NCBI GenBank assembly: GCA_000004695.1
Contig: CM000151.3
Location: 512,001-576,000 of the forward strand
DNA from: Dictyostelium discoideum
Taxonomy: Eukaryota
Direction: 5' to 3'
DNA length: 64,000 nucleotides
The position numbers were made by a program, and so were the translations under genes. The notes beneath the pieces are model-generated. The model ran no database searches, was not told the DNA's origin, and worked only from the letters and a program-made list of their open reading frames with translations. This document shows positions 24 to 38,308 of this stretch, in pieces (position 1 is the stretch's first letter; every line of letters begins with the position of its first letter).

Positions 24-3000
24 ATGTCAAATGTTCTTCATGTTGTTAAAGATATCAAACAAGCTGTAGAACAAATGTATCAATTGTTAACGACAAATGG
101 TCAATTAGTGTTTTTAGAACCACCTTATAAATCAGTTCTAAACGATTCAATCGTTGGTTCATTTGAACAATGGTGGTCATTCACTGATACTGATATTAGA
201 AAAGATAGATGTGGTATGCCTCAACAAAGTTGGTATCAATTATTAAATTCGTGTAATTTTAAAGACATTGTAATGTCTAAAGAATGCATTTTCTTTGGAT
301 CAGTAATACAGGCACAAAAACCACCAATTTCTTTATTGAATTCTCAACCAAAGTATGATAATATAATTATATATGGTGGCAGTATTAATTCAAGTTTTGT
401 AGAAAACATCAAATTAGATTCAAATTCAAAAAGTTTATTTCAAATTGAAACTATTCAAGAATTTAATAAATTAATAAGTAAATCAACAATTACAAACGAT
501 TCAATAGTTTATTTCATAAAAACATTAGAAACATTATCATTGGATAATTTTAAACAAATAACTCTTGAATATATTGAAATCAATCAAAAACTATTACAAA
601 TTAATAGTTTATGTAAACATGTATTAATTGTTAGTGATTCAAGAAAAACAAACTATTTAGCATCATCAGCTATTGGTGCAGCAAGATACTTTGATGAATT
701 CCCACTATTGAAATTACACACATTAGATTTTGATTATGATTCAACTCAAAATTATATAAATTCAAAAAATAACAAAATGGTTCAATTCATTAATATCTTG
801 ACAGATTCCAAAACAAATGTTCATAAAGAAATGATTATAATTAATAACAAAGTATATTATGAAATAGTTCAAAAAGAGAAAAATCTAAAATTAAAATACA
901 ATTCAGAATCTTTTGAAAATCAAAATAATTTAATGTGTTCGTTATCACCAAATTTAGAATATCAATTACAATCAAAACAAATTAAATTAAGAGATAATCA
1001 AGTTGAAGTTAAAACAATTGCAACTGGTATCAATTATAAAGATTATTTAAATTTTAGTGGTTCAAATAGCAACGGTGATGACAATACAGGTTTACCACAA
1101 TTTGGATATGAATTTTCAGGTATTATAACAAGAGTTGGTAATAATGTAAAAGATTATAAAGTTGGTGATAATGTATTTGGTTTATCAAATTCTTGTACAT
1201 CATCTCACATTGTTACAAATTTTAAAAAAATTCAAATAAAACCTTCAAAAATAAGTCATATTGAAGCATCATCAATTCCAATTGATTATTTAACATCATT
1301 TATGAGTTTATTTAATGTTGGAAGTTTAAATATTGAAGATAATGAATCGATTTTAATTCATTTAGGTAGAGATGGTTTTGGGTTATCAACATTTGAAATA
1401 TTAAAATGGAAAGGTTTTAAATCAAATTTATTCGTTACAGTTAATTCAGATAAAACTAAACAATATCTTTTAAAAAAATATGGTGATTTAATTACTGGAA
1501 TTTATTCAAACACAGATAAAAGTTATGTGGCAGAAATAAAAAACAAATTAATTAAATTAGGTTCAAAAAAGAAAGGAGTAGATTTAATATTAAATACATT
1601 ACCAAGTGATTTTATGGATTCAAATTTCAAACTATTAACAAAGTATGGTAGAATAATTGATTTAAATTCAAATCATTTAAATCAAAGTGAATTTTTAAAA
1701 AATATCAATTTTAAATATAATCATGGTTACCATAACTTTGAGTTATCATTATTTCAAAAAAATAAAATTCTCAAATGTTTAAATGAAATTTCAAATGCTA
1801 TTGAAAATGGAGAATTAAAAACTATTCCAATTAAAGAATTTACAAATTTAAATATTAAAGATGCCATCAAATACATTACCAACGGTAACATTGAAAAAAT
1901 TACAGTTAGTCATGATCATGAAATTTATAGTGATATTATTTATAGATATTTAGATGAAAAAGAGTTTTCAATATTAAAATCAAATTATCAAATTAATTCA
2001 AATAATTTAGGTAAAAATATATTAATTACAGGTCAATCAGGTATTATTTTAGAAATATTAAAATGGATCATTAAATATTCAAATATTAACACAATTGAAA
2101 ATGTTATTATTCTTTCAAGATCATCATTAAAATGGGAATTAGAATTATTAATTAATCAAACTAAACTATCAAATAATAATATTAAATTCCATTTCAAGAG
2201 TGTTGATGTTGGTGATAGTGAACAAGTTGATAATGCAATCAATGATATACTAAATGAAAACCAACAAATTAGAAATATTGATTCAATATTCCATTTTGCA
2301 TTTCAACAAATTGCATGTAAAGTTCAAGAAATCAATATGAAGCATTTAAATATTTCACATGGAGCAAAATCAATGGGTGCAATTAATTTACATAATCAAT
2401 CAATTAAACGTAATTGGAAATTAATTAATTTTGTTATGGCTTCTTCTGCACTTTCATTTATAGATTCAACAGATCAATGTACATATGCTTGTGCAAATAC
2501 TCTATTAGATTCATTTTCAAAATACAGAGTATCACTTGGATTACCATCAACTTGTATTAACCTTGGTTTAATTGAATCAACTGGTTTCGTTTCAAAGAAT
2601 GAATCGATTTCAGTATTTTTAGATGGCAATGGTATTATCCCAACACCAATCAATCGAGTTTTAGGTCTTTTAGATTTACAAATTCAAAATGCTAGTAAAT
2701 TCACAAATTCAATGATTTCAAATTTCAAACCCTCAAAATTTAAAAATAATCAACAAATATCATTATTTTTAAAATTTGACTACTTGATGAATTTAAAAAA
2801 CAATAGTGAACAAACTAAAAAAGAGAATACTGGAAATAAAAACATTGATGAATTATTCATTGAGAAAGTTTCAGAATTATTTTCAATGGATGAATCAAAA
2901 ATAAATAAAAATCTTAGATTAATCGATTATGGTGCAGATTCATTAATAATAGTTCAATTAAAGAATTGGATAGATAAAGAAATTGGTATAAATTTAATAA

Positions 3001-4313
3001 CAATTCAACAACTTCAAAATAATACAATTAATATTTCAATTAAAATGATATTAAATTCATTAATGAAAAACAATCAAAATAAATACCTACCTTCAAATAG
3101 AATTGATTATTGGAAGAATGAAATGAAATTTGAAGAATCTATTAAACCAATACCAAATGAAATTCGATCAAGAAATAATAACTCAGGAAAAATTATTTTA
3201 TTAACTGGTACAACTGGTTTTTTAGGTGGTTTCTTGCTATTCAATATGTTAAGATTAGATTCATGTAAATTAATTTATTGTTTGATTAGGAATAAAAGTA
3301 AATCAAGTTATCCATTAGATGAAATTATAAATAATTTAAAATATCATCAACTTTATGAAAAATTAAATAAATCACAAATTTCAAAGATTATACCGATTAT
3401 TGGTGATTTATCAATGAATAAACTTGGTCTTTCAAATGATGATTATGAAACAATTTCAAAAAATGTAAATTTAATTATCAATCCAGGTGCAGATATTAAT
3501 CAAAAATCAAGTTATCAAGATTGTAAATTAGTAAATGTTAATGGAGTAAAAGAAATTATTAAATTATCATTATCATCTTTAAAACAAAGGATACCAATTG
3601 TAAACTTTTCATCATTTTCAGTATTTTTCAATCAATCACTTGATAAGAATTTCGATGAATCAGTTTTACCATCAATTGATAATATTGATAATTTACCAAC
3701 AGAATATATGAAGAGTAAAGTTGTGGGAGAATACATTTTATTGGAAGCTTCAAAAAATTATAATATACCATCAATTTTAATTAGACCACCAAGTATATTT
3801 TTAAATCCAGAAACAGGTATTGGTCATAGTAGTGATCTCACTTTATTAATGATCCAATCATGTTATGAATTAGGTTATTGCCCAAATCAAATTTTAAATG
3901 GTTTTATTTTAATTAATACAATTACATGGTTATCAAATAATATTACAAATATTATAATGAATGATAATTGTTGGACAAATTCAAAAATGAATATTTATAA
4001 TGTACATGGTAAACAAATTCAATCAAGTTTAATAATTAAACCACTTGAAAAACATTTCAATTGTAAACAAATCAACAATAATGATTGGATTGATATGGTT
4101 AATAATTCAAATAAAAAATCATGTATTAAATTAAAATCATTCCATTCTTTAGAGAATATTTTTAAAAGTGAAAACAAAGGATATAAATCCAATGAAAGTC
4201 AAAGCATTTCATTATCAACCAAATCATTACTAGAATCAATGGGTTCATACAATACTGATCTTAAAATCACTGATAAAATGATTATTTCTCATATTAAACA
4301 TATTTTTAAATAA
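24..4313 (+). CDS. Type I iterative polyketide synthase, paralog 1, 3' portion only (cMT C-terminal part, ER, KR, ACP, C-terminal thioester reductase R domain); 5' end lies upstream of the window
   Basis: 1429-aa ORF open from the window start and >90% identical at nucleotide level to the 3' two-thirds of the PKS at 29447..38308. It contains ER-like 'GYEFSGIITRVGNNVKDYKVGDNVFGL', a KR Rossmann motif 'ITGQSGIILEIL' with 'YACAN' Y-x3-N, an ACP 'GADSL' phosphopantetheine site, and an R-domain 'LLTGTTGFLGGFLL' (TGxxGxxG) plus 'YMKSK' (YxxxK). Confidence 0.9.
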   Translation: MSNVLHVVKDIKQAVEQMYQLLTTNGQLVFLEPPYKSVLNDSIVGSFEQWWSFTDTDIRKDRCGMPQQSWYQLLNSCNFKDIVMSKECIFFGSVIQAQKPPISLLNSQPKYDNIIIYGGSINSSFVENIKLDSNSKSLFQIETIQEFNKLISKSTITNDSIVYFIKTLETLSLDNFKQITLEYIEINQKLLQINSLCKHVLIVSDSRKTNYLASSAIGAARYFDEFPLLKLHTLDFDYDSTQNYINSKNNKMVQFINILTDSKTNVHKEMIIINNKVYYEIVQKEKNLKLKYNSESFENQNNLMCSLSPNLEYQLQSKQIKLRDNQVEVKTIATGINYKDYLNFSGSNSNGDDNTGLPQFGYEFSGIITRVGNNVKDYKVGDNVFGLSNSCTSSHIVTNFKKIQIKPSKISHIEASSIPIDYLTSFMSLFNVGSLNIEDNESILIHLGRDGFGLSTFEILKWKGFKSNLFVTVNSDKTKQYLLKKYGDLITGIYSNTDKSYVAEIKNKLIKLGSKKKGVDLILNTLPSDFMDSNFKLLTKYGRIIDLNSNHLNQSEFLKNINFKYNHGYHNFELSLFQKNKILKCLNEISNAIENGELKTIPIKEFTNLNIKDAIKYITNGNIEKITVSHDHEIYSDIIYRYLDEKEFSILKSNYQINSNNLGKNILITGQSGIILEILKWIIKYSNINTIENVIILSRSSLKWELELLINQTKLSNNNIKFHFKSVDVGDSEQVDNAINDILNENQQIRNIDSIFHFAFQQIACKVQEINMKHLNISHGAKSMGAINLHNQSIKRNWKLINFVMASSALSFIDSTDQCTYACANTLLDSFSKYRVSLGLPSTCINLGLIESTGFVSKNESISVFLDGNGIIPTPINRVLGLLDLQIQNASKFTNSMISNFKPSKFKNNQQISLFLKFDYLMNLKNNSEQTKKENTGNKNIDELFIEKVSELFSMDESKINKNLRLIDYGADSLIIVQLKNWIDKEIGINLITIQQLQNNTINISIKMILNSLMKNNQNKYLPSNRIDYWKNEMKFEESIKPIPNEIRSRNNNSGKIILLTGTTGFLGGFLLFNMLRLDSCKLIYCLIRNKSKSSYPLDEIINNLKYHQLYEKLNKSQISKIIPIIGDLSMNKLGLSNDDYETISKNVNLIINPGADINQKSSYQDCKLVNVNGVKEIIKLSLSSLKQRIPIVNFSSFSVFFNQSLDKNFDESVLPSIDNIDNLPTEYMKSKVVGEYILLEASKNYNIPSILIRPPSIFLNPETGIGHSSDLTLLMIQSCYELGYCPNQILNGFILINTITWLSNNITNIIMNDNCWTNSKMNIYNVHGKQIQSSLIIKPLEKHFNCKQINNNDWIDMVNNSNKKSCIKLKSFHSLENIFKSENKGYKSNESQSISLSTKSLLESMGSYNTDLKITDKMIISHIKHIFK

Positions 4314-5530
4314 GCAATGTCTTTTTAATGTTTATAAAAGGAAAATAAATAAATTAACTAAATATATTAAATATTAAATATAATTAAAATATTAATATAA
4401 TTCTAAATTTGTGAGTAACTTTTATTTTTTTATTTTTATTTTACATTTTAATTATATTTGCCCCATGCCAAAAATAATTTTATTTTAAAAAGTGAGATAT
4501 TATTTATTAATATTTTAAATTTGTTAAAAATTTTATTAAATTATAACATCTCTTTTTAAAAAGTGAGAAATTGTGTGTGGTAAAATTTTTCCAAAAATAA
4601 CCAATTTTCGAGATTCTGAAAACAATTTAAAAACAATTCGTCAAGTTCCACCAAAATCGAGCAGGTCTGCAGAGTAAAAATTAAAATACTAAAAATAATA
4701 ATAATAAAATAATTAAAATAAAAAAATTAATAATAATGTGTGGAGATAAAATAAATAATTAATTTAATTTATTTTTAATGAAAAAAATTCTTAAAATACT
4801 ATTAAAAAATGAGAGATTGCTGGTTTTATAAAATTTATTAACTTCTTTTTTCCAGTGTTTATATAAAAAGGATTCTATTTTTTTTATATTTTAAAATTAA
4901 AAAATAATTATATTAAAAAGGTAAAAAATAAATTTTTCTGAAAAACTTTAAAATATATATATTATATATTAATAGTTTTTTAAAAAAAAGAAAAAAAATA
5001 AAAAATAAAAATTAAAAAGAAAAAAATAAAAAATAAAAAAAATCATGTTAAAAATTTTTATAGCTATTTTATTTTAGTGATATTCTCATTACTTTCAAAT
5101 TTGAATGCAGTAAATGGAGTTAGTGTTGGCTGTATGACCTATTGTCAAAATTATTTTAAATTTTGCACCTTAGGATCCAGTCAATCAGACAAATTAAATT
5201 GCAAAAAGATAAATGAAAAATGTCCAGAGGGATGTCTAAATATTCTACCAACTAGGTTGGGATGAATAATTCGAAATGGATTGAATTGGAACAAATTGAA
5301 ACAATTTTTTAATGTTTATAAAAATAAACTAAATTTAAAAATAATAAAATTTTTTAAAATTTGAACAGTCACTTTCATTTATTTTGAAATAAATTTTTTT
5401 TTTTTTTTTTTTCTGTAACAGAAGTGGTATGGTTTAGAAAGATTTGAAATATATCTCCCCATTTTAGAGTTTCTTCATTCTATTGATGTTGAATACATTA
5501 TGAGAATTGATAATATTTGGAAATTATAAT

Positions 5531-6170: not shown

Positions 6171-6229
<59 letters not shown>

Positions 6230-7189: not shown

Positions 7190-7335
7190 TCCCATATGGT
7201 GGGTTTTGTAATTGGAAATATTGCAAACTTGTCTGGATTCTAAAATATCTCCTAATTTAAAAAGTTTTTTAAATTTTACCATAAAATGTATAAAAAAAGT
7301 GGTATTTAATAATTCTAATTAATATTCATTCTTTA
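7190..7335 (+). promoter_or_regulatory. Conserved upstream block of the PKS paralogs (putative promoter/regulatory region of PKS paralog 2)
   Basis: Blocks '...atctcctaatttaaaa...', 'aaaaaaagtggtatttaataattctaattaatattcatt' and 'tcacctatttt' are shared with the regions upstream of the PKS genes starting at 18981 and 29447. Confidence 0.3.
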
Positions 7336-7477
7336 TATTCACTCACCTATTTTCTTAAATAAGGTTAGTTTTTATTTTTTTAAAAAAAAAATATATTTAA
7401 AAAACAAATATTAATTCGAATAAATTATTCTATATTATTCTATAGAGATATTCCTCAACTAAAATTACTAAATACCT

Positions 7478-8114
7478 ATGAATAATTTTAAGAATATAAA
7501 TTTAATAGAGAAAGGAGTTGCAATTGTTGGTATTGGATTTAGAATTCCTTCTGGTAATAATGAAAATTCAATCAGTTCACCAGATGATTTATTTAATAAT
7601 TTAAAGAATGGTTTTGATGGTGTTAGTAGTACATCAGAAAGATGGAGTGACAATTTTCATAAATTAGGTGAAATTAGTAGTCCAAATGCAGGTTTATTAC
7701 CATTTAATGAATGCAAATCATTCGATCCATTATTTTTTGGTATTAATCCATCCGAAGCACCATTGATTGATCCTCAACAAAGATTATTATTAAAATGTAC
7801 ATGGGAAGCATTAGAAGATGCATCTATTGATCCAATTTCAATTCGTGGTACAAATACTTCAGTTTTCATTGGTTCTTCAAATATTGATTATTTACATACA
7901 AATAAACATCAAGACTCAGTTTTAAAAAATGTAATAGCACAATCCACCTGTGCAATTTCAAATAGAATATCATATTGTTTCGATTTTAATGGTCCATCAT
8001 TATCAATTGATACTGCATGTTCATCATCATTAAATGCAATTTCTCAAGGTTATCATTCAATATTAAATGGTACTTCTGATATCTCAATTGTTGGTGGTGT
8101 AAATTTAATATTAG
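7478..8114 (+). CDS. PKS paralog 2, exon 1 (ketosynthase N-terminal half incl. active-site Cys '[10 protein letters not shown]')
   Basis: ATG at 7478; ORF '[28 protein letters not shown]...VGGVNLILG' ends at a GTAAGG donor at 8115. Confidence 0.85.
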
Positions 8115-8186
8115 GTAAGGATTAAATATATATATTTTAAAAATACACTCATTAATTAAATTTAATTTATTTAAATATTTTACTAG
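8115..8186 (+). other. Intron 1 of PKS paralog 2 (72 bp, phase 1, GTAAGG...TACTAG)
   Basis: Joining the g at 8114 to the 'at' at 8187 gives '...VNLILG|DVETTKAYSYLSMLSKTHGKCKAFD', the canonical KS continuation; exon 1 and exon 2 ORFs are in the same frame and the intron length is a multiple of 3. Confidence 0.8.
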
Positions 8187-11100
8187 ATGTTGAAACGACA
8201 AAAGCATATTCGTATTTAAGCATGTTAAGTAAAACACATGGTAAATGTAAAGCATTTGATGAAAGTGGTGATGGTTTTACACGTGGTGAATGTGCTGGTG
8301 TTGTAGTTTTAAAGAATTTACAAGATGCAGTAAAAGATGGTAATAGAATTTATTGTGTAATTAATGGTTCAAGTTCAAATGTTGATGGTAATGGTAATAT
8401 GGATAAAGTTAACTTTTATTCGCCATCAAAGCAATCACAATTTAATAATATTAATTCAGCATTTAAATCAACCAATGAAAAACTTTCAGTAAATGAAATT
8501 CAATATATCGAAGCACATGGTACTGGTACTAAAACAGGCGATCCAATTGAAACTGAAGCAATTTCAATGGCTTTTAAAAATAGAGATAAATCAACACCAA
8601 TTCTAATTGGTTCAATTAAAAGTAATATTGGTCATTGTGAAGCTGGTTCAGGTGTTGCATCATTAATCAAATGTTGTTTAATGTTTAAATATCAATGCTT
8701 TTTACCAAACATTCATTTCAAAAATCCAAATCCATTAATTAAATTCAATGAATGGAATTTAAAAGTTGTAACATCACCAATTCCATTCAACAGGAAAAAT
8801 GAAAAACCAGTTTCAATGATGATTAATAACTTTGGTGTAACAGGTTCAAATTGTTGTTTACTTATTTCAGAGTTTAAAAAACAAGATTATGAGCCATATG
8901 AAAACAACTACAAAAGTAATAATAAAAATATATTAATACCATTCTCAGCAAATTCATCAAATTCATTAAATCAATACCAATCAAAATTTAAAAATATAAT
9001 TAATAATCAATTCAATTTTATTGATTTTACCGCAAATCAAATTTATTCAAAATCAAATTATCTTTGTCAAAGATCAGTTATAGCTGCAAGTAATTCAAAT
9101 GAACTTTTTGAAAAAATTTTAAATAAAAAACAAATTCAAACTAAAAATTCAATCATTTCGAATATGTCATTCAAAGGAAAGAACCCAATTACAATTTTTG
9201 TTTTTTCAGGTCAAGGATCACAATATCCTAAAATGGCTTTAGAATTATATAATAATGAAGTAATCTTTAAGAAGTCAATTGATTTAATCAATTCAAAATT
9301 ATCAAAATACTATGGTTATTCAGTTTTAGAAAAATTAAGGTCGATAGGAGATGATGATACCACTTCCATTCATGATCCAAATATTTCACAACCAGCAGTG
9401 TGTATGATTTCAGTATCACTATTTGAATTGTATTGCCATTGGGGAGTAAATCCATCATTTATTCTTGGTCATAGTCTTGGTGAAATTTCAGCATCATATT
9501 GTTCTGGAATGATAGACTTAGATACATTCTGTTATACAGTTTATCACAGATCAATAGCGCAAACTAAAACACACGGTAATGGTAGAATGTTATCAATCAA
9601 TATCAGTGATGAAGAATTTAAATCAATGTATTCTCAAAAGTATCCACAAATTGAAATAGCATGTTATAATTCACCTCAATCAATTGTTGTGGCAGGTAAT
9701 GAATCAATATTAAATGAAATTTCAAAAGAATTAAAAGAAAAAGAAATTTTCACTGCAATGTTAGGTTCATTATCATCATTCCATACAAGTAGTCAGCAAT
9801 GTACAAAAGATAGTGTATTAAAACTAAATATTCAAAGCAATCAACCAAAAGTACCAATATTTTCAACAGTTACAACAAATTTATTTAATGAATCAAATCG
9901 ATTTAATTCACAATATGTTTACGATAATATTATTAATCCAGTTAGATTCACACAAACAATTTCAAATATTTATAAACATATCGAATCAAATCAATTAAAT
10001 AATGATATTGTATTCATTGAAATTGCACCACATCCAACATTATCATTTTATATTAAACAAATGGTACCATCAAGTTTAAATGAATCAGTTTCAGTTTATT
10101 CAGCACTTCACAAGAAAAAGAATGATGTCGAAGAGTTTCAACAAACCATTTCAAATTTATATTGTCAAAATGGATATAATATTAATTTTAAATGTCAATT
10201 TAATAATAAAAAATCAAATAAAAAAATTGATTTACCTCTTTACCAATGGAGTGACGAAACATACTTCGCTCAAACTCAAACACTTGAACAACATAGAGAA
10301 GAAGGACCACCAATTGACCATCTTGGTATATCAAACTCTTTTATTTCACCATTTAATAATTCATATAAAACATTAATCGATATAAACAATAAACCATTCC
10401 AATATCTTAAAGGTCATATGGTTAAAGGTAAATACTACTTCCCAGGTTGTGGTTATATCGATAATATTATTCAACTTTATAAAAATCAAGATATTTTTAT
10501 TAGTTTTATAGAATTTAAAACACCATTAATTTTAATTGAAGGTATCAATCAATGTTTACAAACAAACATTCAACAAACTGGTAAAAGTGAATATCGTGCA
10601 CAATTTCATTTCAAAGATCAAAAATCAAATCAATGGACTCAATCGTCAAATTCAAATTTCCAATTATTAGATCATGGTAATGATATACCATCAAATTATA
10701 ATATTGAAGAAATTATTAAAAACAAATGTAATTTAAGCAAATTAACAAAGAATGAACTTTATACACATATAAAATCAAAAACTGGTTTAAATTATACTGG
10801 AGTTTTTAAAGGTGTTACTGAATGTTATATAGGTGATAACTGTTCATTATCAGTTGTATCTTTAGAATCTCAAACAAACTCATTTTTAAATATACCAATA
10901 TTAGATACATGTTTACATGGAATGTTAGTATTAATAAATGATCAATGTCAAATTGTATTTGATAAAACCATTGGATTTAAATATTATTCATCAAACATAC
11001 CAGCATATTTCAAAGAAAATAAAGATTGTTTTTATGTTTATTCCCATTTAAAATCAAAGAGTGCTGATTCATACCATGGATCTATAATTGTAATGTTATC

Positions 11101-15461: not shown

Positions 15462-15477
15462 CGGAAATGAAAAAAAA

Positions 15478-15516
<39 letters not shown>

Positions 15517-26599: not shown

Positions 26600-26700
26600 A
26601 TGACAATAATAATACATACAATAGATATTAACCCAATGAAAATCAAAACATTACTAGAATTATCAACAGATAATGGGTGATCTTGAAATTTTTTATTTAA
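26600..26700 (+). pseudogene. Remnant of the 3' end of a deleted thioester-reductase (R) domain directly downstream of the PKS paralog 3 stop
   Basis: 'acaatagatattaacccaatgaaaatcaaaacattactagaattatcaacagataatgggtgatcttgaaatt' aligns to the last ~90 nt of the R-domain coding sequence of the paralog at 38160..38250 ('aatagatataaacccaatgaaaatcaaagca...cattactagaatcaatgggctcatacaacactgatcttgaaatcac'). Confidence 0.7.
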
Positions 26701-26970
26701 ATAAGATTCAAATTTTACTTTGCGTTTTTTTTATTTAATATTTTTAGATTTGGGTAGTTTTGGACATTATAAAATAAAAAATCTAAATCTAAATAAAATA
26801 AAAAATACAAATCTAAATTATTCTTTTTTATAAAAAAAAAAAAAAAAAAAAAAGTCAAATCAACATAAAAACATCTTCAGACATTATTTTTAAAATTGAA
26901 TTTATAAAAAAAATTTTATTTATAAAAATAAAATTTTTTCTCAATTAATATAGATATTTCAAAACTAAAT

Positions 26971-28450: not shown

Positions 28451-29098
28451 TGCATGCTAAAATTAAAAAGATTCCTTTATTGTATCCAAAAAATAAAAGT
28501 GAAAAAAAAAAAAAAAAGAATGGTTTAAAAAAAAAAAAAAAAGGGTTAAAAATATAATAAATTAATTTTTAATAAATGTTGAGAGAAAGTATTTAAATTT
28601 TTTTTTTATTTTATTTTTTATTTTTTTTTTTTTTCCTATTCTCTGGGATTATAATCTGAAAAAGGGTTTTTTTTTTTTAAACAAATATGGGCTTACTAAT
28701 AATTTAAATTGGTAAAAAAAAACAGAAAGGATGATATATACAAAAAAAAAAATATTTTTTGTCCTTGAATATAATTTTTTCAAATATTATATCATTGTTG
28801 TTTTATAATTAATTTGAATTTGTATAATTTTATGAATTTTATCTGGTGTGAATCTGCAAAAAATTTTATATTTTTTTTTATTTTTTTATCTGGTGGAAAT
28901 CTACAAAAAAAACAACAATAAATCTATAGATTTAAAAAATTAAAAAATCGTCATTATTTTTTTTTTTGGTATGGCTTTCTCTAAACGAATCCCCACGAAA
29001 AAAAATTATAAACTTCTAATTTTCTAAGGCCACAGTGCTGCACAAAATTACTTTTCACTTTATAGTGCTGAAATTTTTACATCCAACCCCCAAAATTT

Positions 29099-29224: not shown

Positions 29225-29345
29225 AATAAATCAAATGTGCTGTTAGTTAATCTCCTGAATAAAAATTTTTTATAAATTTTACCACATAAAGCCTTTAAAA
29301 AAAGTTTGTGTTTAATAATTTTAATTAATAAAATCATGTAAATAA
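29225..29345 (+). promoter_or_regulatory. Conserved PKS upstream block (putative promoter of PKS paralog 4)
   Basis: 'taatctcctgaataaaaa...aaattttaccacataaagcctttaaaaaaagtttgtgtttaataattttaattaata' shares the atctcct / tttaccaca / aaaaaaagt / ttaataatt(c/t)taattaata elements with the other paralogs. Confidence 0.3.
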
Positions 29346-29446
29346 TGAAAGTTTTTTAAAAAAAATATAAATTTAAAACAACAATATTTAATTTTAATAA
29401 AAAATTTTCTTCACTAATTTTGATATTTCAAAACTACTAAATACCT

Positions 29447-30083
29447 ATGGGTAATTTAAAAAATATAAATTTAAAAGAGAAAGGAGTTGCAATTGTTGGT
29501 ATTGGATTTAGAATTCCTTCTGGTAATAATGAAAATTCAATTAGTTCACCAGATGATTTATTTAATAATTTAAAGAATGGTTTTGATGGTGTTAGTAGTA
29601 CATCAGAAAGATGGAGTGACAATTTTCATAAATTAGGTGAAATTAGTAGTCCAAATGCAGGTTTATTACCATTTAAAGAATGGAAATCATTCGACCCATT
29701 ATTTTTTGGTATTAATCCATCTGAAGCTCCATTAATCGATCCTCAACAAAGATTATTATTAAAATGTACATGGGAAGCATTAGAAGATGCATCTATTGAT
29801 CCAATTTCAATTCGTGGTACAAATACTTCAGTTTTCATTGGTTCTTCAACTATTGATTATTTACATACAAATAAACATCAAGACTCAGTTTTAAAGAATG
29901 CAATAGCACAATCAACCAGTGCGATTTCAAATAGAATTTCATACTGTTTCGATTTTAATGGTCCATCACTATCAATTGATACTGCATGTTCATCATCATT
30001 AAATGCAGTTTCTCAAGGTTATCATTCAATATTAAATGGTACTTCCAATATGTCAATTGTTGGTGGTGTAAATTTAATATTAG
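29447..30083 (+). CDS. PKS paralog 4 (full-length copy), exon 1 (KS N-terminal half)
   Basis: ATG 29447 '[28 protein letters not shown]...[15 protein letters not shown]...VGGVNLILG' followed by a GTAAGG donor at 30084. Confidence 0.85.
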
Positions 30084-30830
30084 GTAAGGATTATTATTTT
30101 TTTTTTAAAATTAAAAATACACTTATTAATTAAAATTTATTTTTATTAGATGTTGATATTATAAAAGCATATTCGATTTTAAGCATGTTAAGTAAAACAC
30201 ATGGTAAATGTAAAACATTTGATGAAAGTGGCGATGGTTTTACACGTGGTGAATGTGTCGGTGTTGTAGTTTTAAAGAATTTACAAGATGCAGTAAAAGA
30301 TGGTAATAGAATTTATTGTGTAATTAATGGTTCAAGTTCAAATGTTGATGGTAATGGTAATATGGATAAAGTTAACTTTTATTCACCATCAAAACAATCA
30401 CAATTTAATAATATTAATTCAGCATTTAAGTCAACAAATGACAAACTCTCGATTAATGATATTCAATATATCGAAGCACATGGTACCGGTACTAAAACAG
30501 GCGATCCAATTGAAACTGAAGCAATTTCAATGGCTTTTAAAAATAGAGATAAATCAACACCAATTCTAATTGGTTCAATTAAAAGTAATATTGGTCATTG
30601 TGAAGCTGGTTCAGGTGTTGCATCATTAATCAAATGTTGTTTAATGTTTAAATATCAATGCTTTTTACCAAATATTCATTTCAAAAATCCAAATCCATTA
30701 ATTAAATTCAATGAATGGAATTTAAAAGTTGTAACCTCACCAATTCCATTCAACAAAAGAAATAATGAAAAACCAGTTTCAATGATGATTAATAACTTTG
30801 GTGTAACAGGTTCAAATTGTTGTTTACTTA
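29468..30830 (+). other. Domain: ketosynthase (KS), spans intron 1
   Basis: Cys '[10 protein letters not shown]' in exon 1; His motifs 'EAHGTGTKTGDP' and 'NIGHCEAGSG' in exon 2. Confidence 0.8.
30084..30149 (+). other. Intron 1 of PKS paralog 4 (66 bp, phase 1)
   Basis: GTAAGG...TTATTAG; splicing gives '...LILG|DVDIIKAYSILSMLSKTHGKCKTFD'. Confidence 0.8.
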
Positions 30831-33800
30831 TTTCAGAATTTAAAAATAACAATAACTTTAAAGAGAATATTAATTTAGAATCTCAAAGTGTTAATGATAG
30901 AGTGTTAATACCATTCTCAGCAAATTCATCAAATTCATTAAATCAATACCAATCAAAATTTAAAAATATAATTAATAATCAATTCAATTTTATTGATTTT
31001 ACCGCAAATCAAATTTATTCAAAATCAAATTTTCTTTATCAAAGATCAGTTGTAATTGCAAGTAATTCAAATGAACTTTTTGAAAATATCTCAAATAAAA
31101 AACAAATTCAAACTAAAAATTCAATCATCTCAAATATGTCATTCAAAGGAAAGAACCCAATTACAATTTTTGTTTTTTCAGGTCAAGGATCACAATATCC
31201 TAAAATGGCTTTAGAATTATATAATAATGAAGTAATCTTTAAAAAGTCAATTGATTTAATCGATTCAAAATTATCAAAGTACTATGGTTTTTCAGTATGG
31301 GAGAAGGTAAAAACAATCAAAGATGATGACTTAACCTCAATACATGATCCAATTTTTGCCCAACCAGCACTATGTATGATTTCAGTATCACTATTTGAAT
31401 TATATTACCATTGGGGAGTAAATCCATCATTTATTCTTGGTCATAGTCTTGGTGAAATTTCAGCATCATATTGTTCTGGAATGATTGATTTAGATACATT
31501 CTGTTATACAGTTTATCAAAGATCAATAGCACAATCTAAAACAAATGGTTGTGGTAGAATGTTATCAATTAATATCAGTGATGAAGAATTTAAATCAATG
31601 TATTCTCAAAAGTATCCACAAATTGAAATCGCATGTTATAATTCACCTCAATCAATTGTTGTGGCAGGTAATGAATCAATATTAAATGAAATTTCAAAAG
31701 AATTAAAAGAAAAAGAAATTTTCACCACAATGTTAGGTTCATTATCATCATTCCATACAAGTAGCCAACAATGTACAAAAGATAGTATATTACAACTAAA
31801 CATTGAAAGTAATCAACCAAAAGTACCAATATTTTCAACAGTTACAACAAATTTATTTAATGAATCAAATCGATTTAATTCACAATATGTTTATGATAAT
31901 ATTATCAAACCAGTTAAATTCACACAAACAATTTCAAATATTTATAAACATATCGAATCAAATCAATTAAATAATGAAATTGTATTCATTGAAATTGCAC
32001 CACATCCAACATTATTATTTTATATTAAACAAATGGTACCATCAAGTTTAAATGAATCAGTTTCAGTTTATTCAGCACTTCATAAGAAAAAGAATGATGT
32101 CGAAGAGTTTCAACAAACCATTTCAAATTTATATTGTCAAAATGGATATAATATTAATTTTAAATGTCAATTTAATAATAAAAAATCAAATCAATCAATA
32201 AATTTACCACTTTACCAATGGGATGAAGAATTATATTTCACTCAAGCCCAAACTCTCGAACAACATAGAAAAGAAGGACCACCAATTGACCATCTTGGTA
32301 CATCAAACTCTTATAATTCACCATTTAATAATTCATATAGAACATCAATCGATATAAAGAATAAACCATTTCTATATCTTAAAGGCCATATGGTTAAAGG
32401 TAAATACTACTTCCCAGGTTGTGGTTATATTGATAATATTATTCAACTTTATAAAAATCAAGATATTTTTATTAGTTTTATTGAATTTAAAACACCATTA
32501 ATTTTAATTGAAGGTATCAATCAATATTTACAAACAAACATTCAACAAACTGGTAAAAGTGAATATCGTGCACAATTTCATTTCAAAGATCAAAAATCAA
32601 ATGAATGGATTCAATCATCAAATGCAAATTTCCAATTATTAGATCATGGTAATGATATACCACCAAAGTATAATATTAAAGAAATTATTGAAAACAAATG
32701 TAATTTAAGCAAATTAACAAAGAATGAACTTTATACACATATAAAATCAAAAACTGGTTTAAATTATACTGGAGTTTTTCAAGGTGTTACTGAATGTTAT
32801 ATAGGTGGTGATTGTACATTATCAGTTGTATCTTTAGAATCTCAAACAAACTCATTTTTAAATATACCAATATTAGATACTTGTTTACATGGAATGATAG
32901 GATTGTCAAATGATCAATGTCAAATTGTATTTGATAAAGCTATTGGATTTAAATATTATTCATCAAACATACCAGCAAATTTAAAAGATTATAAAGATAG
33001 TGTTTATGTTTATTCCCATTTAAAATCAAAAAGTGTTGATTCATTCTTTGGATCTATAATAGTAATGTTATCAGATGGTTCAGTTTTATATGAAATTGAA
33101 GAAGTTGTTTGTAAATCATTAATTCCAATCAAAGATTCACTTAAAATTGAGTATCCTAATGATGAATTATACAAAGTTCATTTACAATCAAAAGATTCTC
33201 CAATTCCAACACCATCATCATTCAAATCAATTATTTATGAAAATGATTTCTTCCATTCTGCACTTAATATTCCAGAAGATTTATTCAAATATATTTCAAC
33301 ATTATTTTATAAAGATATTATAAAAAGATGTCCAGAAATTAATATCAATAAAATTAATTCTCATAGTGTTAATGAAATTATTTCAAGTTTCAGTAAAATT
33401 TCAAAACACGAAAGATTATTTAGATTTGTATTTGAAACAATAAAAGAGAATGGTATTCTTAATAGTTTGGAAGAAAATGATGATGCTTATTTCGAATTTA
33501 ATGAAGTAATTATCAAATCGTCAAGAATTATTTCAAAATTATTATTCCCACTAGAAAGTGATAATGATAATGAAGATTTACCTCAATCATTATTTCAAAA
33601 TGGTTTAATGGATAAAATTTATAAATGCAGATATTTAAGAAAGAAGAATCAAATGATTTCACATGTTATTAAACATTCAATTAAAGAGATTATTAATAAT
33701 AATATTATAATTAGAATTTTAGAATTTGGAGGAGGTACTGCATCATTATCAGTTGAAGTTATTGAAGAAATAATTGCATTACTTCAAGAGAATCCAAATT

Positions 33801-36800
33801 ATCAAGTTGAAATCGAATATACATGGAGTGATATTTCACCTGCATTCATAGCAGATGCAAAGAATAAAATCAATAAAATCATTAATGATGCTGCTATAAC
33901 AAATGGATTTAATGTTATTTATCGTCCATTAAAAATTGATGAATCATTGATAGAAACTCAATCAATTAATCCATCATATTATGATTTCGTTATAATGTCA
34001 AATGTTCTTCATGTTGTTAAAAATATTAAACAAGCTGTAGAACAAATGTATCAATTGTTGACTCCAAATGGTCAATTACTATTTTTAGAGCCACCTTATA
34101 AATCAGTTCTAAATGATTCAATAGTTGGTTCATTTGAACAATGGTGGTCATTCACTGATACTGATATTAGAAAAGATAGATGTAGTATGTCTCAACAAAG
34201 TTGGTGTCAATTATTAAAGACATGTAATTTTAAAGACATTGCAATGTCTAAAGAATGCATCTTTGTTGGTATTGTAATACATGCACAAAAACCACCAATT
34301 TCTTTATTGAATTCTCAACCAAAACGTGATAATATAATTATATATGGTGGTGGTAATCCAATTTTTGTAGAAAACATCAAATTATATTCAAATTCAAAAA
34401 GTTTAATTCAAATTGAAACTATTCAAGAATTTAATCAATTATTAAGTCAATCAACAATAACAAACGATTCAATCATTTATTTCATAAAAACATTAGAAAC
34501 ATTATCATTGGATAATTTTAAACAAATAACTCTTGAATATATTGAAATCAATCGAAAATTATTACAAATCAATAGTTTATGTAAACATGTATTAATTGTT
34601 AGTGATTCAAGAAAAACTAACTATTTAGCATCATCAGTTGTTGGTGCAGCAAGATACTTTGATGAATTCCAACAATTGAAACTAAATACTTTAGATTTTG
34701 ATTATGATTCAACTCAAAATTATATAAATTCAAATAATAAAGATATGGTTCAATTCATTAATATCTTGACAGATTCCAAAACAAATGTTCATAAAGAAAT
34801 GATTATAATTAATAATAAAGTATATTATGAAATAGTTCAAAAAGAGAAAAATCTAAAATTAAAATACAATTCAGAATCTTTTGAAAATCAAAATAATTTA
34901 ATGTGTTCATTATCACCAAATTTAGAATATCAATTACAATCAAAACAAATTAAATTAAGAGATAATCAAGTTGAAGTTAAAACAATTGCAACTGGTATCA
35001 ATTATAAAGATTATTTAAATTTTAGTGGTTCAAATAGCAACGGTGATGACAATACAGGTTTACCACAATTTGGATATGAATTTTCAGGTATTATAACAAG
35101 AGTTGGTAATAATGTAAAAGATTATAAAGTTGGTGATAATGTATTTGGTTTATCAAATTCTTGTACATCATCTCACATTGTTACAAATTATAAAAAAATT
35201 CAAATAAAACCTTCAAACCTAAGTCATAACGAAGCATCATCAATTCCAATTGATTATTTAACATCATTTATGAGTTTATTTAATATTGGTAGTTTAAATA
35301 TTGAAGATAATGAATCAATTTTAATTCATTTAGGTAGTGATGGTTTTGGATTATCAACATTTGAAATATTAAAATGGAAAGGTTTTAATTCAAATTTATT
35401 CGTTACAGTAAATTCATATGAAACTAAACGATATCTTCAAGATAATTACGGTGATTTTATTACTGGAATTTATTCAAACACAGATAAAAGTTATGTTACA
35501 GAAATAAATAAAAAATTAATTAAATTAGGTTCAAAAAAGAAAGGAGTAGATTTAATATTAAATACATTACCAAGTGATTTTATGGATTCAAATTTCAAGC
35601 TATTAGCAAAGTATGGTAGAATAATTGATTTAACGTCAAATCATTTAAATCAAAGTGAATTTTTAAAAAATATCAATTTTAAATATAATCATGGTTACCA
35701 TAACTTTGAGTTATCATTAATTCAAAAAAATAAAATTCACAAATGTTTATATGAAATTTCAAATGCTTTTGAAAATGGAGAATTAAAAACCATTCCAATT
35801 AAAGAATTTACAAATTTAAATATTAAAGATGCCATCAAATACATTACCAACAATAAAATTGAAAAAATTACAGTTAGTCATGATCATGAAATTTATAGTG
35901 ATATTATTTATAGATCTTTAGATGAAAAAGAGTTTTCAATATTAAAATCAAATTATCAAATTAATTCAAATAATTTAGGTAAAAACATATTAGTCACAGG
36001 TCAATCAGGTATTATTTTAGAAATATTAAAATGGATCATTAAATATTCAAATATTAATACAATTGAAAATGTTATTATTCTTTCAAGATCATCATTAAAA
36101 TGGGAATTAGAATTATTAATTAACGAAACTAAACTATCAAATAATAATATTAAATTTCATTTCAAGAGTGTTGATATCGGTGATAGTGAACAAGTTGATA
36201 ATGCAATCAATGAAATATTAAATGAAAACCAACAAATTACAAATATTGATTCAATATACCATTTTGCATTTCAACAAATTACATGTAAAGTTCAAGAAAT
36301 CAATATGAAACATTTAGATATTTCACATGGAGCAAAATCAATGGGAGCAATTAATTTACATAATCAATCAATTAAACGTAATTGGAAATTAATTAATTTT
36401 GTTATGGCTTCATCTGCAATTTCATTAATAGGTTCAACTGATTTATGTACATATGTTTGTGCAAATGCATTATTAGATTCATTTTCAAAATACAGAGAAT
36501 CACTTGGATTACCATCAACTTGCATTTGCCTTGGTGCAATTGAATCAACTGGTTTCGTTTCAAAGAATGAATCAGTTTCAGTATTTTTAGACGGTGGTGG
36601 TTTCCATCCAACACCAATCAATCAAGTTTTAGGCCTTTTAGATTTACAAATTCAAAATGCTGGTAAATTCACAAATTCAATGCTTTCAAATTTCAAACCC
36701 TCAAAATTTAAAAATAATCAACAAACATCATTATTTTTAAAATTTGATTACTTGATGAATTTAAAAAACAATAGCGAAGAAACCAAAATAGAGAATACTG

Positions 36801-38308
36801 GAAATAAGAACATTGATGAATTATTCATTGAGAAAGTTTCAGAATTATTTTCAATGGATGAATCAAAGATAAATAAAAATCTTAGATTAATCGATTATGG
36901 TGCAGATTCACTAATAATAGTTCAATTAAAAAATTGGATAGATAAAGAAATTGGTATAAATTTAATAACAATTCAACAACTTCAAAACAATACAATTAGC
37001 ACTTCAATGAAAATGATATTAAATTCATTAATGAAAAATAATCAAAATATAGATGACAATAATAAAGACCTACCTTCAAATAGAATCGATTATTGGAAGA
37101 ATGAAATGAAATTTGAAGAGTCTATTAAACCAATATCAAATGAAATACAATCAAGGAATAATTCAGAAAAAATTATTTTATTAACCGGTACAACTGGTTT
37201 TTTAGGTGGTTTCTTATTATTCAATATGGTAAGATTAGATTCATGTAAATTAATTTATTGTTTAATTAGAAATAAAAGTAAATCAAATAATCCATTAGAT
37301 GAAATTATAAATAATTTAAAATATCATCAACTTTATGAAAAATTAAATCAATCACAAATTTCAAAGATTATACCAATTATTGGTGATTTATCAATGAATA
37401 AACTTGGTCTTTCAAATGATGATTATGAAACAATTTCAAAAAATGTAAATTTAATAATCAATCCAGGTGCAGATATTAATCAAAAATCAAGTTACCAAGA
37501 TTGTAAATTAGTAAATGTAAATGGAGTAAAAGAAATTATTAAATTATCATTATCATCATTAAAACAAAGGATACCAATTGTAAACTTTTCATCATTTTCA
37601 GTATTTTTCAATCAATCACTTGATAAGAATTTTGATGAATCAGTTTTACCATCAATTGATAATATTGATAATTTACCAACAGAATATATGAAGAGTAAAG
37701 TTGTTGGTGAATATATTTTATTGGAAGCTTCTAAAAAATATAATATACCATCAATTTTAATTAGACCACCAAGTATATTTTTAAATCCAGAAACAGGTAT
37801 TGGTCATATTAGTGACTTCTCTTTATTATCAATCCAATCATGTTATGAATTAGGTTATTATCCAAATCAATTTGAAAATGATTTTATTTTAATTAATACA
37901 ATTACATGGTTATCAAATAATATTACAAATATTATAATGAATGATAATTGTTGGACAGATTCAAAAATGAATATTTATAATGTACATGGTAAACAAATTC
38001 AATCAAGTTTAATAATTAAACCACTTGAAAAACATTTCAATTGTAAACATATCAATACTAATGATTGGATTGATATGGTAAATAATTCAAATAAAAAATC
38101 ATGTATTAAATTAAAATCATTCCATTCTTTGGATATAATTTTAAAAAGTGAAAACAATAGATATAAACCCAATGAAAATCAAAGCATATCATTATCAACC
38201 AAATCATTACTAGAATCAATGGGCTCATACAACACTGATCTTGAAATCACTGATAAAATGATTATTTCTCATATTAATCAAATTTTTAATTTAAATGAAA
38301 CAATTTAA
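30150..38308 (+). CDS. PKS paralog 4, exon 2: complete KS(C-term)-AT-DH-cMT-ER-KR-ACP-R megasynthase (about 2920 aa after splicing) with C-terminal NAD(P)-dependent thioester reductase
   Basis: Continuous 2707-aa ORF; all catalytic motifs are listed in the domain entries below; stop TAA at 38306-38308. Confidence 0.9.
31160..32135 (+). other. Domain: acyltransferase (AT)
   Basis: 'FVFSGQGSQYPKMA' and active-site 'GHSLGEISA' (Ser at ~31445-31447). Confidence 0.8.
32280..33130 (+). other. Domain: dehydratase (DH)
   Basis: 'IDHLG...' N-terminal region and 'LKGHMVKGKYYFPGCGY' H-x3-G-x4-P active-site motif. Confidence 0.65.
33600..34300 (+). other. Domain: C-methyltransferase (cMT)
   Basis: SAM motif I 'ILEFGGGTASLSVEV'; downstream 'YDFVIMSNVLHVV' motif II/III-like. 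Confidence 0.65.
34940..35885 (+). other. Domain: enoylreductase (ER, MDR superfamily), nucleotide motif atypical
   Basis: 'QVEVKTIATGINYKDY...GYEFSGIITRVGNNVKDYKVGDNVFGL' and 'ILIHLGSDGFGLSTFEILKW'; the glycine-rich motif reads G-S-D-G-F-G rather than the canonical G-x-G-x-x-G. Confidence 0.55.
35970..36575 (+). other. Domain: ketoreductase (KR)
   Basis: Rossmann 'ILVTGQSGIILEIL'; catalytic 'CTYVCANALLDSF' (Y-x3-N). Confidence 0.65.
36800..37040 (+). other. Domain: acyl carrier protein (ACP)
   Basis: 'LRLIDYGADSLIIVQLKNWI', phosphopantetheine Ser in 'GADSL' at ~36908-36910. Confidence 0.75.
37165..38305 (+). other. Domain: C-terminal thioester reductase (R, SDR-type)
   Basis: 'ILLTGTTGFLGGFLLFNM' (TGxxGxxG NAD(P)-binding) and 'PTEYMKSKVVGEY' (YxxxK catalytic pair). 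Confidence 0.75.

Follow-up and report, generated by a model that had tools for sequence, protein, structure and literature searches.

Gene content and repeat structure of the array

The window, the whole stretch of 64,000 nucleotides of Dictyostelium discoideum DNA that was analysed, contains the pks6–pks7–pks8–pks9 array of chromosome 2, which is a known and previously annotated locus. The original prediction had advised that names be assigned by comparison with the pks family, and exact protein look-up did so, identifying the four PKS proteins of the window as those of D. discoideum AX4 pks6 (partial), pks7, pks8/35 and pks9/36 (copies A, B, C and D, respectively). The spliced models of the last three agree with the database proteins at every residue, the window proteins show no sequence difference from the UniProt entries 'Probable polyketide synthase 6, 7, 8/35, 9/36', and for pks6, whose full protein has 2924 aa, the retrieved locus is colinear with the window. 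The genes pks6, pks7, pks8/pks35 and pks9/pks36 reportedly appear in the genome description by Eichinger (2005) and in the PKS survey by Zucko et al. (2007).

Self-BLAST and the protein look-up confirmed the head-to-tail, same-strand array of type I PKS genes with one pseudocopy (Table 1), and the three predicted gene starts were correct, with start-to-start spacings of 11,503 and 10,466 bp. The frame of copy A does not start at position 24, as had been supposed, but is open from window base 3, and the gene begins upstream of the window. The array also extends beyond what had been recognised, as pks5 (the dictyodene synthase gene) lies ~650 bp upstream of pks6, past the window edge. The locus would then hold a five-gene tandem family made of pks5 (outside the window), pks6, pks7, pks8, the pseudocopy and pks9, with all its synthases being probably of the iterative, highly reducing type I. 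Downstream, the neighbours of the array encode an NDH2-type oxidoreductase, a calcipressin and a ComC-like protein, and no tailoring-gene cluster is evident beside it.

The predicted identity of more than 90% over more than 7 kb was borne out by self-BLAST, which found the copies 93.5–95.5% identical at the nucleotide level along as much as 7.8 kb. Positions 1–3077 of copy A align with 12000–15073 of B (95.5%) and with 23514–26594 of C (94.8%), and positions 1–4454 align with 33972–38419 of D (93.5%), this last alignment passing both stop codons. Among the complete copies, B 7382–15073 matches C 18887–26593 (94.3%), B 7247–15073 matches D 29250–37045 (93.5%) and C 18833–26612 matches D 29330–37065 (93.7%). 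The start points of these alignments also support the similar upstream blocks proposed for pks7, pks8 and pks9. A GTAAG…TAG phase-1 intron is present in the three complete copies (3/3), in agreement with the prediction; the peptide given for the splice site, VGGVNLILG, has to be corrected to VGGVNLILD, as the split codon is G/AT (Asp).

The pseudocopy is likewise real. It lacks the KS active site, and the only parts that Pfam recognises in it are the linker between KS and AT and the N-terminal third of the AT domain. It is present in the AX2 assembly and missing from the orthologous spacer of a diverged strain. That strain also lacks, in its orthologous pks7–pks8 spacer, the retrotransposon fragment found there in the window, whose homologues (93–98% identity, some with the RT domain PF00078) are located on four AX4 chromosomes. 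ARAGORN detected no tRNA genes in the window that could explain a TRE-type insertion, and the spacer ORF 15857–16270 has no Pfam match.

Table 1. Coordinates of genes, domains, repeat blocks and junctions in the window
Feature	Coordinates	Strand	Evidence
pks6 (DDB_G0271524), 3' 1436 codons: end of cMT, ER, KR, ACP, R	1..4313	+	open frame, Pfam
pks6 terminal reductase (NAD_binding_4)	3090..4307	+	PF07993 E = 1.3e-52; TGTTGFLG, YMKSK
3' flank common to both R+ copies, pks6 side	4314..4454	+	self-BLAST
pks7 upstream (promoter-proximal) block, common with pks9; last ~96 nt also in pks8	7247..7477	+	self-BLAST starts 7247/29250, 7382/18887
pks7 (DDB_G0271614), 2513 aa, KS-AT-DH-cMT-ER-KR-ACP, without R	7478..15091	+	gene model, exact match, Pfam, motifs
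pks7 exons	7478–8114, 8187–15091	+	
pks7 intron, 72 nt	8115–8186	+	
pks7 truncation junction: R+ homology stops after AATCAA; unrelated TGTGGAAGGGAAATTTAA gives last 5 codons and stop	15074..15091	+	breakpoint alignment
Non-LTR retrotransposon fragment in pks7–pks8 spacer: multi-copy, 5'-truncated, C-terminal ~400 aa of ORF2, one frameshift	16943..18146	-	tblastn
pks8 upstream block, common with pseudocopy and pks9	18821..18980	+	self-BLAST 18821/26791, 18833/29330
pks8/35 (DDB_G0271618 = DDB_G0295667), 2514 aa, without R	18981..26599	+	gene model, exact match, motifs
pks8 exons	18981–19617, 19692–26599	+	
pks8 intron, 74 nt	19618–19691	+	
pks8 3' end: 1-bp deletion in A-run relative to pks9, giving Gln-Ile-stop; R-linker homology extends ~20 nt further	26591..26612	+	breakpoint alignment
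Pseudocopy, pks8-like: four pieces (−159..+418, +480..565, +1178..2105, +4702..4809) left by internal deletions	26791..28451	+	self-BLAST
pks9 upstream block	29250..29446	+	self-BLAST
pks9/36 (DDB_G0271530 = DDB_G0295659), 2931 aa, KS-AT-DH-cMT-ER-KR-ACP-R	29447..38308	+	gene model, exact match, Pfam, motifs
pks9 exons	29447–30083, 30150–38308	+	
pks9 intron, 66 nt	30084–30149	+	
pks9 terminal reductase	37073..38305	+	PF07993 E = 6.4e-52; tblastn; TGTTGFLG, YMKSK
3' flank, pks9 side, common with pks6	38309..38419	+	self-BLAST

Domain content and loss of the terminal reductase

The KS and AT domains are matched by Pfam (PF00109, PF02801, PF00698) and carry DTACSS, HGTGT, NIGH and GHSLGE in every copy, thus presenting the KS Cys-His-His triad and the AT GHSxG motif of a type I PKS. 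The ACP (PF23297, PF00550) retains the phosphopantetheine-attachment Ser in GADSL in every copy, the cMT shows the motif EFGGGTA and matches to PF08242, PF13489 and PF08241, and KR (PF08659) and ER-type (ADH_N / ADH_zinc_N_2) matches are present. Pfam made no PS-DH call in the PKSs of the array, and DH is supported by its HxxxGxxxxP motif (HMVKGKYYFP) and by the published architecture of Pks5 (PMC9618038). Every copy retains its catalytic motifs; in the ER the nucleotide-binding motif is degenerate (HLGSDGFG or HLGSDSFG), which leaves ER activity uncertain.

The copies had been presented as equivalents having a cMT and a terminal reductase (R), which is right for pks6 and pks9 and wrong for pks7 and pks8, as these two end after ACP and lack the last ~410 codons corresponding to the reductase domain. 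Pfam identifies R (PF07993) only in pks6 and pks9, in which an SDR-type domain with TGxxGxxG and YxxxK follows ACP, and the R region of pks6 is 92.6% identical to the pks9 tail by tblastn. The alignment with pks6/pks9 ends at 15073 in pks7 and at ~26612 in pks8, and the two genes end 5 and 1 codons, respectively, past the common …MKNNQ. The orthologue of pks7 in the diverged wild isolate ACTFIW (ACTFIW_011180) has the same junction (AATCAA/TGTSGAAGGGA), and the pks8 orthologue (ACTFIW_011181) continues to …NLPSNRID before its stop codon. Genes of the pks8 type (pks8 and its orthologue) retain about 40 nt of additional R linker, a tblastn search past the ends of pks7 and pks8 found no vestige of the R domain, and the nearest outgroup, D. 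firmibasis RB653_009810, has the reductase. Read from the sequence, the loss of R is secondary, with two separate deletions just after ACP, one in pks7 and one in pks8. The ancestor of the pks6–9 subgroup would accordingly be one carrying a C-terminal NAD(P)H-dependent thioester reductase, retained in pks6 and pks9. The idea that pks6/pks9 gained R by fusion within the pks6–9 subgroup was prompted by the lack of R in every one of the nearest relatives from D. citrinum, D. firmibasis and D. dimigraforme; it is rejected because the pks8-type genes keep R-linker codons and because the body and the tail of pks9 are about equidistant (63% and 65%) from the R-bearing outgroup RB653_009810.

Given dN/dS values of 0.21–0.37 across the genes of the array and their intact motifs, all four genes, pks6 to pks9, look functional. 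A competing view is that pks7 and pks8 are former R-bearing genes in decay and no longer functional, which would leave pks6 and pks9 as the functional content of the array. Such a view would fit the deletion of the release domain from both genes, the additional frameshift at the 3' end of AX4 pks8, the existence of one isolate without pks8 and with a fragment of pks7 only, and the report that few metabolite features vanish in the pks7 knockout (PMC12625978). We nevertheless consider it distinctly unlikely, as the frames of pks7 and pks8 (2513–2532 codons) are kept in both AX and ACTFIW across a dS of ~0.12–0.14 with orthologue dN/dS at 0.23–0.27 and no catalytic motif lost, Pks5 is equally R-less and demonstrably active (PMC9618038), and conserved R-less relatives are also known from D. 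citrinum, D. firmibasis and D. dimigraforme.

Age of the duplications and concerted evolution

In ACTFIW (dS ~0.12) the four genes follow one another in the same order, R is distributed in the same way (R+/R−/R−/R+) and both truncation junctions recur; the dS values for the flanks of the array between AX and ACTFIW range between 0.06 and 0.17. The duplications are therefore old, and the very recent duplication offered in the original prediction as one explanation for the high identity is contradicted. An independent origin of the four-gene arrays of AX and ACTFIW is very unlikely given their common junction sequences, and unequal crossing-over probably built the array at a time when AX4 and the tropical D. 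discoideum isolates had not yet separated.

Examination of divergence within and between genomes yielded paralogue dS values (0.107–0.124) no higher than those of orthologues (0.119–0.139). The site patterns in quartets, analysed with simple tests of our own in which the full quartets used one diverged genome, numbered 119–143 for pattern O, 88–96 for pattern P ('concerted') and 8–14 for the cross pattern R, the difference between P and R being highly significant (binomial p ~1e-16 to 1e-18) and the sites being clustered along the genes (runs-test z −7.4 to −10.1). When only the window was considered, the three topologies of the four-taxon test drew 23, 18 and 20 sites, again spatially clustered (p = 4e-4), and identity varied as a mosaic between domains (for example, pks6/pks9 are 98.5% identical in AT and 88.2% in DH). 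Kilobase-scale identical tracts, a sign of very recent conversion, were not found, the longest exact run being 255 nt against ~105 expected. Because paralogue dS does not exceed orthologue dS, P is in excess over R and the sites are clustered, the data indicate mosaic gene conversion after the strain split and not very recent duplication. The array thus combines the two features that characterise concerted evolution, duplications predating the lineage split and a clustered excess of paralogue-common states. Since the split, short-tract conversion between copies would have repeatedly overwritten segments, which would explain why paralogues within one genome are as alike as orthologues between strains.

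Could very recent duplication alone, without gene conversion, account for the similarity of the copies? The uniform-looking identity (93.5–95.5% over 7.7 kb) and the near equidistance of the paralogues (218, 196 and 201 unique sites) agree with such a history; pure divergence, however, predicts that paralogue dS exceeds orthologue dS and that P equals R, contrary to what we observed, and the two distinct junctions and gene order common to ACTFIW predate the isolates' separation at dS ~0.12, making this explanation highly improbable. Gene conversion after the split is also in line with the other process originally proposed, ongoing conversion or unequal crossing-over, which is upheld by the mosaic seen in the quartet and four-taxon tests and by the fact that isolates differ in copy number.

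Copy number is polymorphic, since the array is contracted in a third isolate (GCA_054859385.1), which keeps pks5, a degraded pks6, a 1.4-kb pks7 cMT fragment and pks9 in 20.6 kb instead of 42.2 kb. Unequal exchange or deletion may therefore still be altering the number of copies, the pseudocopy of AX and this contracted array being its likely outcomes. In ACTFIW the frame of the pks6 orthologue reads as interrupted (longest terminal ORF of 1034 codons), so that not every copy may be intact in every strain. Conversion from intact neighbours could also help to hold the frames of pks7 and pks8 open.

The collapse or chimaerism of copies feared in the original prediction did not materialise. A Nanopore and Illumina de novo assembly (GCA_054883475.1, from the project described in PMC12745789) is colinear with window positions 1–48342 at ~99.85%, its matches covering 1–25128 and 19446–48342 at 99.84–99.87% with 3–4 mismatches; near-identity and the project description make this very probably AX2-214. 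As this independent long-read assembly is colinear, the copy number is no artefact, and with paralogue-specific differences about every 18 nt the copies are readily told apart. An assembly artefact as the source of the array or of its number of copies, through repeats that were collapsed, expanded or joined into chimaeras when the AX4 reference was built, can be practically dismissed: 7–9 kb copies at ~95% identity are difficult for Sanger-era assembly and the AX4 chromosome 2 assembly carries a large duplication (PMC2643946), but all junctions, spacers and the pseudocopy were reproduced de novo, the Pks6–9 proteins are identical in both assemblies and no exact run common to two copies exceeds 255 nt. 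The boundary of the chromosome 2 duplication would, judging from gene naming, lie near the array; Bloomfield 2008 gives no gene-level breakpoint for it, and looking up the second AX4 copy (pks35/pks36) returned the AX2 contig as the only match. It is conceivable that the left breakpoint of the 750-kb AX3/AX4 duplication coincides with the AX-specific retroelement fragment between pks7 and pks8.

The D. discoideum tgrB/C locus (PMC12745789) resembles the array in its mosaic tracts, copy-number polymorphism and pseudocopies. For tgr it is diversification that is stressed, whereas in the pks array megasynthase genes of 7–9 kb are homogenised, a process that in the truncated copies reaches no further than the ACP/R boundary. 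The literature searched contained no account of how the R+/R− junctions are built, of the mosaic left by conversion or of the difference in copy number among isolates.

Predicted products and implications

The product of the pathway had been called unknown from sequence, which overstates the case, as a neighbour with 88% identity, Pks5, makes dictyodenes, C18 methylated polyunsaturated hydroxy acids (PMC9618038), and this provides a concrete chemical expectation for Pks6–9. Pks5 is adjacent upstream in the same orientation, has the KS-AT-DH-cMT-ER-KR-ACP architecture and the same intron position, and is R-less like pks7 and pks8; its CDS is 88% identical to the array, a value of ~88% being also quoted for pks5/pks7 (PMC9618038). 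It differs from the array genes in dS (0.26–0.28), in an ACP only 67% identical and in a C-terminus that ends a few residues earlier with no trace of the R linker. By analogy, the probable products of Pks6–9 are long-chain polyketides of the dictyodene kind, methyl-branched and largely unsaturated. From the domain content we infer a split in release, with Pks7 and Pks8 predicted to release acids, like R-less Pks5, and Pks6 and Pks9 aldehydes or alcohols. Transcripts of pks6 are measurable (PMC12625978). Fungal highly reducing PKSs with a C-terminal NAD_binding_4 or SDR-type R, releasing aldehydes or alcohols, share with Pks6 and Pks9 the order of ACP then R and the motifs TGxTGxxG and YxxxK; unlike them, Pks6 and Pks9 come from a lineage-specific amoebozoan expansion and have no evident tailoring-gene cluster.

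Taking all these results together, we assign a probability of about 0.85 to the reading in which the annotated array is real, R was lost twice, the copies evolved in concert by conversion and their function is dictyodene-like as proposed. A further and more speculative proposal, which we regard as rather unlikely, is that the array is a small combinatorial system, in which conversion shuffles domain-sized segments among near-identical synthases and the presence or absence of R toggles release. If this were true, the mixture of dictyodene-like acids, aldehydes and alcohols produced by a natural isolate would depend on the copies it carries, and ecological or social selection would act on it. 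The retroelement as duplication breakpoint is a separate proposal, which we also regard as rather unlikely.

For users of the reference, the assembly of the array is correct, and guide RNAs, primers and RNA-seq mapping need paralogue-aware design. For natural products research, the locus supplies near-identical synthases in two matched pairs that are set apart mainly by the reductive release domain, and pks6–9 beside Pks5 form a ready comparison of the effect of this domain on amoebal polyketides. In evolutionary terms, concerted evolution and birth-and-death become quantifiable here in megasynthase genes of 8–9 kb, and the dynamics of the array may help to explain the lineage-specific look of dictyostelid PKS repertoires (PMC3188802).

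Gene content of the array and its assembly

Comparison of the window (~23% GC) against itself by BLAST revealed four same-strand copies (A to D) of one long repeat (see table), confirming the array of polyketide synthase (PKS) copies with a pseudocopy that the original prediction had proposed, whose ATGs at 7478, 18981 and 29447 and spacings of 11,503 and 10,466 bp agree with ours. The spliced models of copies B, C and D yielded proteins of 2513, 2514 and 2931 aa that an exact-sequence look-up matched to the D. discoideum AX4 proteins DDB_G0271614 ("Probable polyketide synthase 7"), DDB_G0271618/DDB_G0295667 (polyketide synthase "8/35") and DDB_G0271530/DDB_G0295659 (polyketide synthase "9/36"), respectively; copy A, partial in the window, is pks6 (DDB_G0271524, 2924 aa). 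The annotation of the reference genome and the PKS literature based on it already include these genes, their tandem layout and their high similarity. Because pks5 (2512 aa) precedes pks6 in the fetched locus, on the same strand and only ~650 bp away, the array comprises five genes and the pseudocopy, and the window begins inside the second gene. Each complete copy has a single short GTAAG…TAG intron; the predicted common phase 1 intron thus holds, but the spliced peptide reads VGGVNLILD because the split codon is G|AT, the final G proposed earlier being read-through into the intron.

Coordinates of features in the window (repeat pairs from self-BLAST)
Feature	Position	Strand	Remark
Repeats A, B	1–3077, 12000–15073		95.5%
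Repeats A, C	1–3077, 23514–26594		94.8%
Repeats A, D	1–4454, 33972–38419		93.5%
Repeats B, C	7382–15073, 18887–26593		94.3%
Repeats B, D	7247–15073, 29250–37045		93.5%
Repeats C, D	18833–26612, 29330–37065		93.7%
pks7 intron	8115–8186		phase 1
pks8 intron	19618–19691		phase 1
pks9 intron	30084–30149		phase 1
Non-LTR retrotransposon fragment	16943–18146	−	5'-truncated, ORF2 C-terminus; in spacer 15092–18980
Pseudocopy	26791–28451		four pieces of a pks8-like gene
NDH2-type oxidoreductase	38427–39812	−	
Calcipressin-family gene	about 43.5–44.9 kb	+	AX2 annotation
ComC-like EGF/TIG protein	45800–47788	−	
DOT1-domain protein	51064–56601	+	
Kinase C-terminal exon	56653–57633	−	
Dynamin-family protein	60771–63098	+	

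Collapsed or chimeric copies had been considered a real risk, and fewer copies in long reads the sign of an artefact. The de novo assembly GCA_054883475.1 (Nanopore plus Illumina) comes from the project of PMC12745789, whose strain set included laboratory strain AX2-214; this list and near-identity to AX4 argue that the assembly represents AX2-214. It is colinear with 1–25128 and 19446–48342 of the window (99.84–99.87%, 3–4 mismatches, a few indels), taking in all spacers and the pseudocopy, and its Pks6, 7, 8 and 9 proteins are identical to those of AX4. Paralogues differ once per ~18 nt, and the longest stretch identical between any of them measures 255 nt. An assembly artefact is hence ruled out by this independent assembly, and the long-read check on copy number favours the array.

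Reductase loss and predicted chemistry

Pfam searches identified KS, KS-C, linker, AT, cMT, ER-type ADH_N/ADH_zinc_N_2, KR and ACP in all copies, and the C-terminal NAD_binding_4 thioester reductase (R; E about 1e-52) only in pks6 and pks9. The copies are therefore PKSs as predicted but not of one type: pks6 and pks9 are R+, and pks7 and pks8 are R−, their proteins ending 5 codons and 1 codon, respectively, after the common …LMKNNQ. The pks7 DNA reads AATCAA followed by the unrelated sequence TGTGGAAGGGAAATTTAA…; that of pks8 continues to track pks9 for another ~20–40 nt of the R linker, and a 1-bp deletion in its A-run (CAAAATATAG to CAAATATAG) gives Gln-Ile-stop. In the diverged wild isolate ACTFIW (GCA_054859355.1), the pks7 orthologue has the identical junction (…NNQCRRDTG…) and the pks8 orthologue continues to …NNQNIDGNNKNLPSNRID*. 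From these junction sequences in AX (AX4 and the AX2-like assembly) and ACTFIW we conclude that pks7 and pks8 are R+ genes cut short at two distinct breakpoints, both predating the strain split. An R+ ancestor would be consistent with the R+ state of the nearest outgroup gene, D. firmibasis RB653_009810, about equally distant from pks9 body (63%) and tail (65%). No R remnant was found downstream of pks7 or pks8.

Catalytic motifs are all intact in pks5–9 (KS, C-H-H; AT, GHSLGE; DH, HMVKGKYYFP; cMT, EFGGGTA; KR, TGQSG; ACP, GADSL; and R, TGTTGFLG plus YMKSK, in pks6 and pks9 only); ER carries a degenerate cofactor motif (HLGSDGFG or HLGSDSFG), likewise in Pks5. Since dN/dS values were 0.21–0.27 for orthologues and 0.30–0.37 for paralogues, pks6–9 are all under purifying selection. 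Pks5, which shares the R-less architecture of Pks7 and Pks8, makes dictyodenes: C18 fatty acids, polyunsaturated, hydroxylated at C17 and methylated at the α or γ position, which give sori their colour and inhibit premature germination (PMC9618038). The products of Pks6–9 may be related methyl-branched, largely unsaturated chains, which Pks7 and Pks8 would release as acids, and Pks6 and Pks9 reductively as aldehydes or alcohols. A few metabolite features are lost in a pks7 knockout, and PPTase loss alters pks6 transcripts (PMC12625978). No obvious tailoring-enzyme cluster lies in 38427–64000 of the window, the neighbours being ordinary single-copy genes.

Dating the array and evidence for gene conversion

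Order and R pattern in ACTFIW are the same as in AX (11179, 2902 aa, R+; 11180, 2532 aa, R−; 11181, 2525 aa, R−; 11182, 2929 aa, R+). The longest terminal ORF of the pks6 orthologue ACTFIW_011179 (1–8325 of the retrieved locus), annotated as 2902 aa, has only 1034 codons in our reading; a frameshift, residual sequencing error or an additional intron in the annotation could account for this.

Values of dS between the ACTFIW lineage and AX4 were 0.06–0.17 for single-copy flanking genes and 0.119–0.139 for the PKS orthologues (AX against ACTFIW); dS was only 0.107–0.124 among the AX paralogues, which by this measure are no older than the strain split although the duplications must predate it. In quartets of two paralogues from both genomes, we counted orthology-type sites, concerted sites (one state common to both paralogues of one genome) and, as control, cross-pattern sites: 133, 96 and 14 for pks7/pks8, 143, 88 and 8 for pks7/pks9, and 119, 93 and 10 for pks8/pks9 (concerted versus cross, binomial p about 1e-16 to 1e-18). 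Orthology-type and concerted sites form alternating blocks along the genes (runs-test z −7.4 to −10.1), as in pks8/pks9, with 53/11 in columns 1–1500 and 2/26 in columns 1501–3000. Within the 3.07 kb common to the four window copies the three topologies are nearly equal (23, 18 and 20 sites) and their sites spatially clustered (permutation p = 4e-4), and identity is a mosaic by domain (pks6/pks9, AT 98.5% versus DH 88.2%; pks6/pks7, ACP 98.2% versus AT 90.1%). Quartet patterns, clustering and mosaic identify repeated short-tract interlocus gene conversion, one of the two explanations initially offered. The other, very recent duplication as the source of identity, fails, given the concerted excess and the order, R pattern and junctions common to ACTFIW.

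Copy turnover and spacers

The array is contracted in a third isolate, ACTFIR (GCA_054859385.1, JBTAPF010000011.1:593313–642789), which retains orthologues of pks5 and pks9, together with a pks6-like R+ gene that is split into three frame segments and has lost its 5' end, and a 1.4-kb fragment, closest to pks7, that covers cMT alone; pks8 is absent, and pks5 start to pks9 start spans 20.6 kb versus 42.2 kb in AX. Over one stretch of 500 nt the degraded pks6-like gene is closest to pks5 (93.1% versus about 90%), a hint of conversion from pks5. ACTFIW has an extra pks8-like copy on another contig (ACTFIW_000318, 2525 aa, 86% identical) and D. firmibasis has three R-less homologues in tandem (RB653_009874–6). 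Several lineages have therefore expanded this family independently; PKS expansions have been described as lineage-specific (PMC3188802). The ~88% identity between pks5 and pks7 was flagged as a warning in PMC9618038. Junction anatomy, the quantified conversion mosaic and the isolate copy-number difference, which we did not find in the accessible PKS literature, are useful refinements and represent ordinary tandem-family behaviour.

The predicted pseudocopy is real; counted from the pks8 ATG, its pieces correspond to −159..+418, +480..565, +1178..2105 and +4702..4809. The KS active site is gone, and only the KS–AT linker and a third of AT remain. ACTFIW lacks the pseudocopy and also ~3 kb of the spacer between pks7 and pks8, including the retrotransposon fragment. 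This fragment has one frameshift (17298/17299), belongs to a multi-copy element found at 93–98% identity on four or more AX4 chromosomes, and accounts for the spike in GC skew at 16–18 kb. The same spacer contains an inverted repeat (15453–15699/16190–16407; 85% identical, ~220–250 nt, partly low-complexity) overlapping a 137-aa ORF (15857–16270) with no Pfam match. In the pks6–pks7 spacer, AT-rich triplet repeats (6001–6316) align in reverse orientation with tracts of the DOT1-domain ORF that encode homopolymers (53961–54305); we rejected homology, both being typical low-complexity Dictyostelium simple sequence.

Two identical AX4 entries exist for pks8 (pks35) and for pks9 (pks36), and one each for pks6 and pks7. 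A ~750-kb duplication of chromosome 2 is known in AX3/AX4. Because pks8 and pks9 are doubled and pks6 and pks7 single, the AX4 entry counts imply that one boundary of this duplication probably lies between pks7 and pks8, in the ~15.1–19.0 kb spacer beside the retroelement fragment.
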